Positions 2-436 of a stretch of 436 nt of DNA are shown here, piece by piece. Below the pieces are notes generated by a model. It was not told the origin of the DNA. It saw only the letters and a list, made by a program, of their open reading frames with translations, and did not search any database. The stretch's first letter is position 1. Each line of letters opens with the position of its first letter. Origin of the DNA: a phage. The position numbers and the translations under genes were made by a program. The DNA lies in sequence record MK163348.1; one strand, given 5' to 3'.

Positions 2-436
2 GTAGTTGTTGACCGTGTATTCTTCAGCAAACTGACTAAGCATCCTAAGATTCGTGACGCTTATCTTGCACAGCAGACTCCACTGGCTTGGCAGCAGATT
101 ACTGGTTCTCTGAGAACTGGTGGTACTGACGGCGTTCAGGCTCATATGAACACTTTCTACTACGGTGGTGTTAAGTTTGTCCAGTACAACGGTAAGTTCA
201 AAGACAAGCGTGGTAAGGTTCACACTCTGGTGAGCATTGATAGTGTAGCAGACACTGTTGGTGTTGGTCATGCTTTCCCTAACGTAGCTATGCTGGGTGA
301 AGCTAACAACATCTTCGAAGTTGCATATGGTCCATGTCCTAAGATGGGTTACGCAAATACACTTGGTCAGGAACTGTACGTATTCGAATACGAAAAAGAC
401 CGTGACGAGGGTATTGACTTCGAAGCGCATTCCTAT
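2..436 (+). CDS. Partial CDS, truncated at both ends by the window; uncharacterised protein, probably a highly expressed phage gene (abundant virion or DNA-associated protein); family not assigned
   Basis: Frame 2 is open for all 145 codons. Sense frames 1 and 3 are closed early (TGA 10-12, TAG 3-5) and repeatedly. Strong codon bias by hand count: GGT 14/15 Gly, ACT 8/9 Thr, CGT 4/5 Arg, TTC 8/9 Phe, CAG 7/7 Gln, GAC 8/9 Asp, CTG 6/8 Leu. First codon position is G-rich, as expected for a true coding frame. The phage attribution rests only on codon dialect (AAG over AAA, no CCG, about 46% GC) and is an inference. Confidence 0.85.
379..392. repeat. Perfect 14-bp palindrome CGTATTCGAATACG centred on TTCGAA, inside the CDS (codons Tyr-Val-Phe-Glu-Tyr-Glu)
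   Basis: Read directly: nt 379-392 equal their own reverse complement. Flanking bases 378 (a) and 393 (a) do not extend the symmetry. Biological role unknown. Confidence 0.6.

Follow-up and report, generated by a model that had tools for sequence, protein, structure and literature searches.

The window, i.e. the whole 436-nucleotide stretch of phage DNA that was analysed (record MK163348.1), is a piece of the major capsid protein gene of a Felixounavirus (Felix O1-like phage). The frame starting at nucleotide 2 is open across the entire window, with no stop codon in its translation. The window matches 257 records of Felix O1-like phages at 80-99% DNA identity, most of which carry a major capsid or head protein annotation, the hosts being Escherichia, Salmonella, Shigella and Citrobacter; identities to many annotated major capsid genes are 96-98.6% for the DNA and 97-99% for the protein. 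A more sensitive search gave 301 matching records, down to approximately 71% identity (phages of Erwinia, Hafnia and Yersinia). A full-length capsid homologue containing the window was assigned to PF03864 with a score of 263.6 bits (E = 2.9e-78, profile positions 2-328 of 329), and the capsid protein is nearly identical to the solved capsid proteins 9ncf and 9c2d (E = 4.4e-247 for the match to 9ncf_A). According to the cryo-EM study of Bas63 (PMC12609058), the Felixounavirus capsid protein has a canonical HK97 fold. Genome-scale comparisons were made with Escherichia phage REP10 (OQ174509.1, genus Felixounavirus), in which the capsid gene occupies positions 21642-22748 (368 codons), with the head maturation protease on one side and tail genes on the other. 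The window corresponds approximately to codons 202-347 of the 368 in the capsid gene. Feature coordinates are given in Table 1.

Table 1. Features of the window and, in the last row, of the REP10 genome
Feature	Position	Strand	Basis or remark
Major capsid protein gene, internal fragment (HK97 fold, Pfam Phage_cap_E)	2..436	+	Translation, homology
Perfect 14-bp palindrome CGTATTCGAATACG	379..392	.	Direct reading
Codons for the conserved peptide Y-V-F-E-Y-E	377..394	+	Peptide identical in 29/29 Felixounavirus-level sequences
8-bp palindrome CTTCGAAG	313..320	.	From Ile-Phe-Glu-Val (ATC TTC GAA GTT)
8-bp palindrome CTTCGAAG	418..425	.	From Asp-Phe-Glu-Ala (GAC TTC GAA GCG)
AT-rich palindrome copies in REP10	80457-80468, 81524-81539, 82321-82332 (OQ174509.1 record positions)		

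The window has no identical counterpart among database records, the best reaching 98.6%. At 426-431 the window has GCG CAT, where nearly all relatives have GCT CAC; both encode Ala-His and the difference is synonymous. Megablast alignments to some records end at nucleotide 426 because of this replacement. A separate irregularity was seen in one relative (L024 10001-10396; IMGVR_UViG_2974574300_000001), in which a one-base deletion in the A-run directly after the palindrome (GAA AAA GAC to GAA AAG ACC) shifts the capsid frame. In all likelihood the frameshift is not real but an error in sequencing the homopolymer.

The sequence at 379-392 is its own reverse complement. An earlier note on this DNA had reported this exact self-complementarity, and direct reading confirmed it together with the frame from nucleotide 2 and the peptide Y-V-F-E-Y-E (TAC GTA TTC GAA TAC GAA). 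The symmetry ends at 14 bp, with A at 378 and A at 393. The palindrome covers the third base of a Tyr codon (TAC), the complete codons for Val (GTA), Phe (TTC), Glu (GAA) and Tyr (TAC), and the first base of a second Glu codon (GAA). It is the sole match to its own sequence in the window when up to two mismatches are permitted. When the window was shuffled 20,000 times, 539 of the shuffles (0.027) contained a perfect palindrome of at least 14 bp, a chance figure that holds for one 436-nt window only and reproduces the estimate of about 0.03 made earlier. The REP10 genome (85,745 bp) contains 12 maximal perfect palindromes of at least 14 bp, against 6.0 +/- 2.4 expected from 100 first-order Markov simulations. 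By annotation about ten of the 12 lie within coding sequences, the capsid palindrome among them. With 12 such palindromes in REP10, a scan of the whole genome is certain to meet several.

The probability of a perfect palindrome given the peptide was calculated as 0.084 with the codon usage of the capsid gene and as 0.011 with that of the whole late gene module. Codon fractions in the capsid gene are 0.60 for TAC, 0.34 for GTA, 0.85 for TTC and 0.80 for GAA. The codon families of the peptide nearly mirror each other (TAY / GTN / TTY : GAR / TAY / G..). This mirror relationship and the value of 0.084 support the view, already put forward in the earlier note, that the symmetry is in part imposed by the peptide. 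The alternation of aromatic and polar residues suggests that YVFEYE would form a β-strand of the HK97-fold capsid protein.

For comparison among relatives, 33 related loci were codon-aligned, comprising 29 distinct sequences at the Felixounavirus/Mooglevirus level. The YVFEYE peptide is present in all 29 distinct sequences and the palindrome is kept in 17. In the remaining 12 the palindrome is lost with the peptide unchanged, through synonymous changes at four different third-codon positions: TAC to TAT in the left Tyr codon (five sequences), GTA to GTG (three), TTC to TTT (five) and TAC to TAT in the right Tyr codon (five). These changes occur in varied combinations and in different lineages, and none of them restores the DNA symmetry. 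Homologues that keep the peptide and break the symmetry at synonymous sites are what the earlier note had named as a sign of chance. Synonymous variation is seen in four of the five palindrome codons, compared with 61% of the window's 110 conserved degenerate codons; averaged over the five per-codon values, the minor-codon fraction in the palindrome is 0.124, against a mean of 0.110 outside. Synonymous variability in the palindrome is thus that of the gene background. Since synonymous breaks are common and variability is at background, the symmetry is without constraint beyond that of the peptide itself. Distant relatives (48-66% protein identity) keep Y-x-F-E-Y, with one to four of the palindrome pairs mismatched.

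We consider it highly probable (about 0.95) that the palindrome has arisen incidentally, as a by-product of encoding a conserved capsid peptide with preferred codons. The capsid protein would require the peptide Tyr-Val-Phe-Glu-Tyr-Glu, and with the codons favoured in this highly expressed gene (TAC, GTA, TTC, GAA, TAC) both strands read alike. Selection would then act on the peptide, weakly on codon choice, and not on the symmetry. Because selection does not act on the symmetry, the palindrome would be freely gained and lost in relatives, by neutral synonymous drift. One point against the by-product reading is that the palindrome is the majority state (17/29); this simply reflects codon preference at each site. 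The palindrome has the properties of incidental coding palindromes that arise from mirrored codon families such as Phe-Glu (TTC GAA): it lies within an open reading frame, is centred on Phe-Glu and uses preferred codons, and it is likewise unique in the genome (REP10) and lost by synonymous drift in relatives. There is no difference in kind between it and its two neighbours in the window, which are 8 bp long compared with 14 bp here. Both CTTCGAAG palindromes arise in the same way as the 14-mer, from a Phe-Glu dipeptide. The Felix O1-like major capsid protein (PF03864, 9ncf, 9c2d) encoded by the window hosts the palindrome and explains no function for it. The palindrome is an ordinary coincidence of peptide and codon bias and not a feature in its own right; nothing suggests that it has a function of its own. 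Coincidence was one of the options offered in the earlier note, and it is borne out by the synonymous breaks in relatives and the chance-level frequency of the motif.

The remaining options of that note were a site for a dimeric protein, a nuclease site and an mRNA hairpin. If it were a recognition site in the capsid gene, bound by a dimeric DNA-binding protein (an operator, for instance) or by a factor involved in packaging or replication, the palindrome would offer perfect twofold symmetry over 14 bp, improbable in any single window (0.027), and presence in most close relatives (17/29). It resembles the operators of dimeric phage repressors and regulators (palindromes of 14-18 bp) in length class and in its perfect dyad symmetry. 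Such operators, however, lie in promoter regions and are usually recurrent and conserved, whereas this palindrome is single, unconserved and inside a late structural gene. By comparison with REP10 it lies about 110 nt upstream of the capsid gene stop codon, far from promoter-like sites, and no promoter-like site was found in the scan. In the 85.7-kb REP10 genome the 14-mer occurs as a single copy. Its half-sites CGTATTC and GAATACG occur five and four times, respectively (palindrome included), against approximately 5.2 expected per strand. Copies with up to three mismatches number one in each half of the REP10 genome, where 0.6-0.7 are expected, and the copy in the first half is the palindrome itself. 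Absence of the motif elsewhere in the genome had also been named as indicating chance, and this is the pattern in REP10, with half-sites at chance frequency. An exact scan of IMG/VR placed the 14-mer in at least 120 stretches, of which 12 are Felixounavirus capsid genes and at least 108 have unrelated flanks; because of these unrelated flanks, the 14-mer has no shared context and is scattered over unrelated viral contigs. The 29 distinct sequences show no conservation of DNA symmetry beyond coding need, 12 of them losing it with the protein unchanged and with no excess of synonymous constraint. A literature search for a palindrome or regulatory element in the Felixounavirus capsid gene returned nothing relevant beyond the Bas63 paper (PMC12609058). 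With the symmetry broken in 12/29 and a single copy in the REP10 genome, we regard a protein-binding site as extremely improbable.

The palindrome has at its core TTCGAA, the sequence recognised by BstBI/AsuII-type enzymes. This hexamer occurs at 314-319, 384-389 and 419-424, i.e. three times within 110 bp, compared with approximately 0.1 expected per 436 nt. Felixounaviruses also have annotated HNH endonuclease genes, one of them in REP10, and the site could accordingly be read as one targeted by a methyltransferase or by an endonuclease of the restriction or homing type. The palindrome shares the central 6 bp with type II sites of this kind and has two further copies nearby. Against this, all three copies are Phe-Glu written as TTC GAA (in IFEV, VFEY and DFEA). 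In REP10, TTCGAA is neither avoided nor enriched, with 28 occurrences where an order-4 Markov model predicts 27.4 and base composition 28.1. The synonymous positions are unconserved, TTC being replaced by TTT at the TTCGAA sites of the window in many relatives (including at 418-425). In all 60 listed of the 301 matching records the alignment runs through the window without a break, so that the listed relatives are without an intron, intein or endonuclease gene here; no insertion at the site, as for a homing endonuclease target, was found in the 33 aligned loci or among the matches listed. The nuclease option of the earlier note thus finds no support in motif frequency, insertions or the conservation of TTC, and a target site is very unlikely. 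Very little probability is likewise given to an uncharacterised nuclease or methyltransferase, of host or phage, that would target the palindrome, or the three TTCGAA sites clustered near the 3' end of the capsid gene, in those lineages that keep them; if this were true, site loss in the other lineages would reflect escape from the enzyme. The outer TTCGAA sites also form a mutual 9-nt inverted repeat (313-321 and 417-425).

At the RNA level, the palindrome is predicted to fold into a hairpin with a 5-bp stem and a 4-nt UCGA loop (-2.7 kcal/mol). The stem and loop dimensions of the earlier note were reproduced, but a functional hairpin, situated close to the 3' end of the capsid message and modulating translation or mRNA stability, is unsupported at this energy and with the structure not kept in relatives. 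In its favour, the hairpin forms the tip of the minimum-free-energy fold of 91 nt, which has z = -2.5 against dinucleotide shuffles, and all observed synonymous transitions in the stem turn Watson-Crick pairs into G-U pairs and not into mismatches. The first of these points is unexceptional because the score shrinks to -1.8 under a null in which the protein is preserved and synonymous codons are drawn from the gene (90-nt fold, p approximately 0.05); the range across other windows of the gene includes this value, and another part of the window (152-241) reaches z = -2.5 against the same null. The second carries no evidential weight, since every third-codon base in the stem is C or A and replacement by G-U is automatic. 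The stem is no improvement on shuffles in its 32-nt context (z = 0.06). Relatives that encode the same peptide have hairpin energies of -0.4, -0.9 or +2.1 kcal/mol, and the distant sequences L026, L032 and L033 have +2.4 to +6.6 kcal/mol. The single-stranded DNA fold (cruciform arm) is unremarkable at -1.7 to -2.8 kcal/mol. In 25 distinct aligned sequences the minimum-free-energy structure of the window has more paired cells and covariation than column shuffles, a count inflated by the derivation of the structure from one of the closely related aligned sequences. Two `compensatory' pairs in the small stem stem from amino-acid replacements in the distant L026, L032 and L033, in which other stem pairs are broken; the aligned relatives show no structure maintained with real covariation. 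No Rfam match at E ≤ 1 and no terminator-like site in the scan were found, nor a stable stem of the kind expected for a cis-acting RNA or intrinsic terminator. A translating ribosome trivially unwinds a 5-bp stem with three A-U pairs. We therefore consider a functional hairpin to be extremely unlikely.

The by-product palindrome has little biological weight, and its value is as a calibration case. A 14-bp palindrome is improbable in one short window (approximately 0.03), yet a phage genome of this size holds a dozen. Peptides like Tyr-Val-Phe-Glu-Tyr in preferred codons yield palindromes automatically, and coding palindromes flagged without a check of conservation at synonymous sites give false leads.

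Two further observations were made in REP10. A large tRNA cluster (L034 10653-15500, OQ174509.1) has more than 20 tRNAs, including Tyr-GTA, Phe-GAA, Glu-TTC and Val-TAC, and these four decode exactly the codons of the palindrome. The cluster may thus be one factor behind codon preference in the capsid gene. In the early region (L035, OQ174509.1) an AT-rich palindrome recurs, as TAAAGTACTTTA twice and as TGTAAAGTACTTTACA once. The motif is one of the 12 REP10 palindromes of at least 14 bp (approximately 6 expected). In all three copies the palindrome takes in the final bases of a small hypothetical gene (ending at 80459, 81528 and 82323), and the motif could be a shared terminator or regulatory motif.
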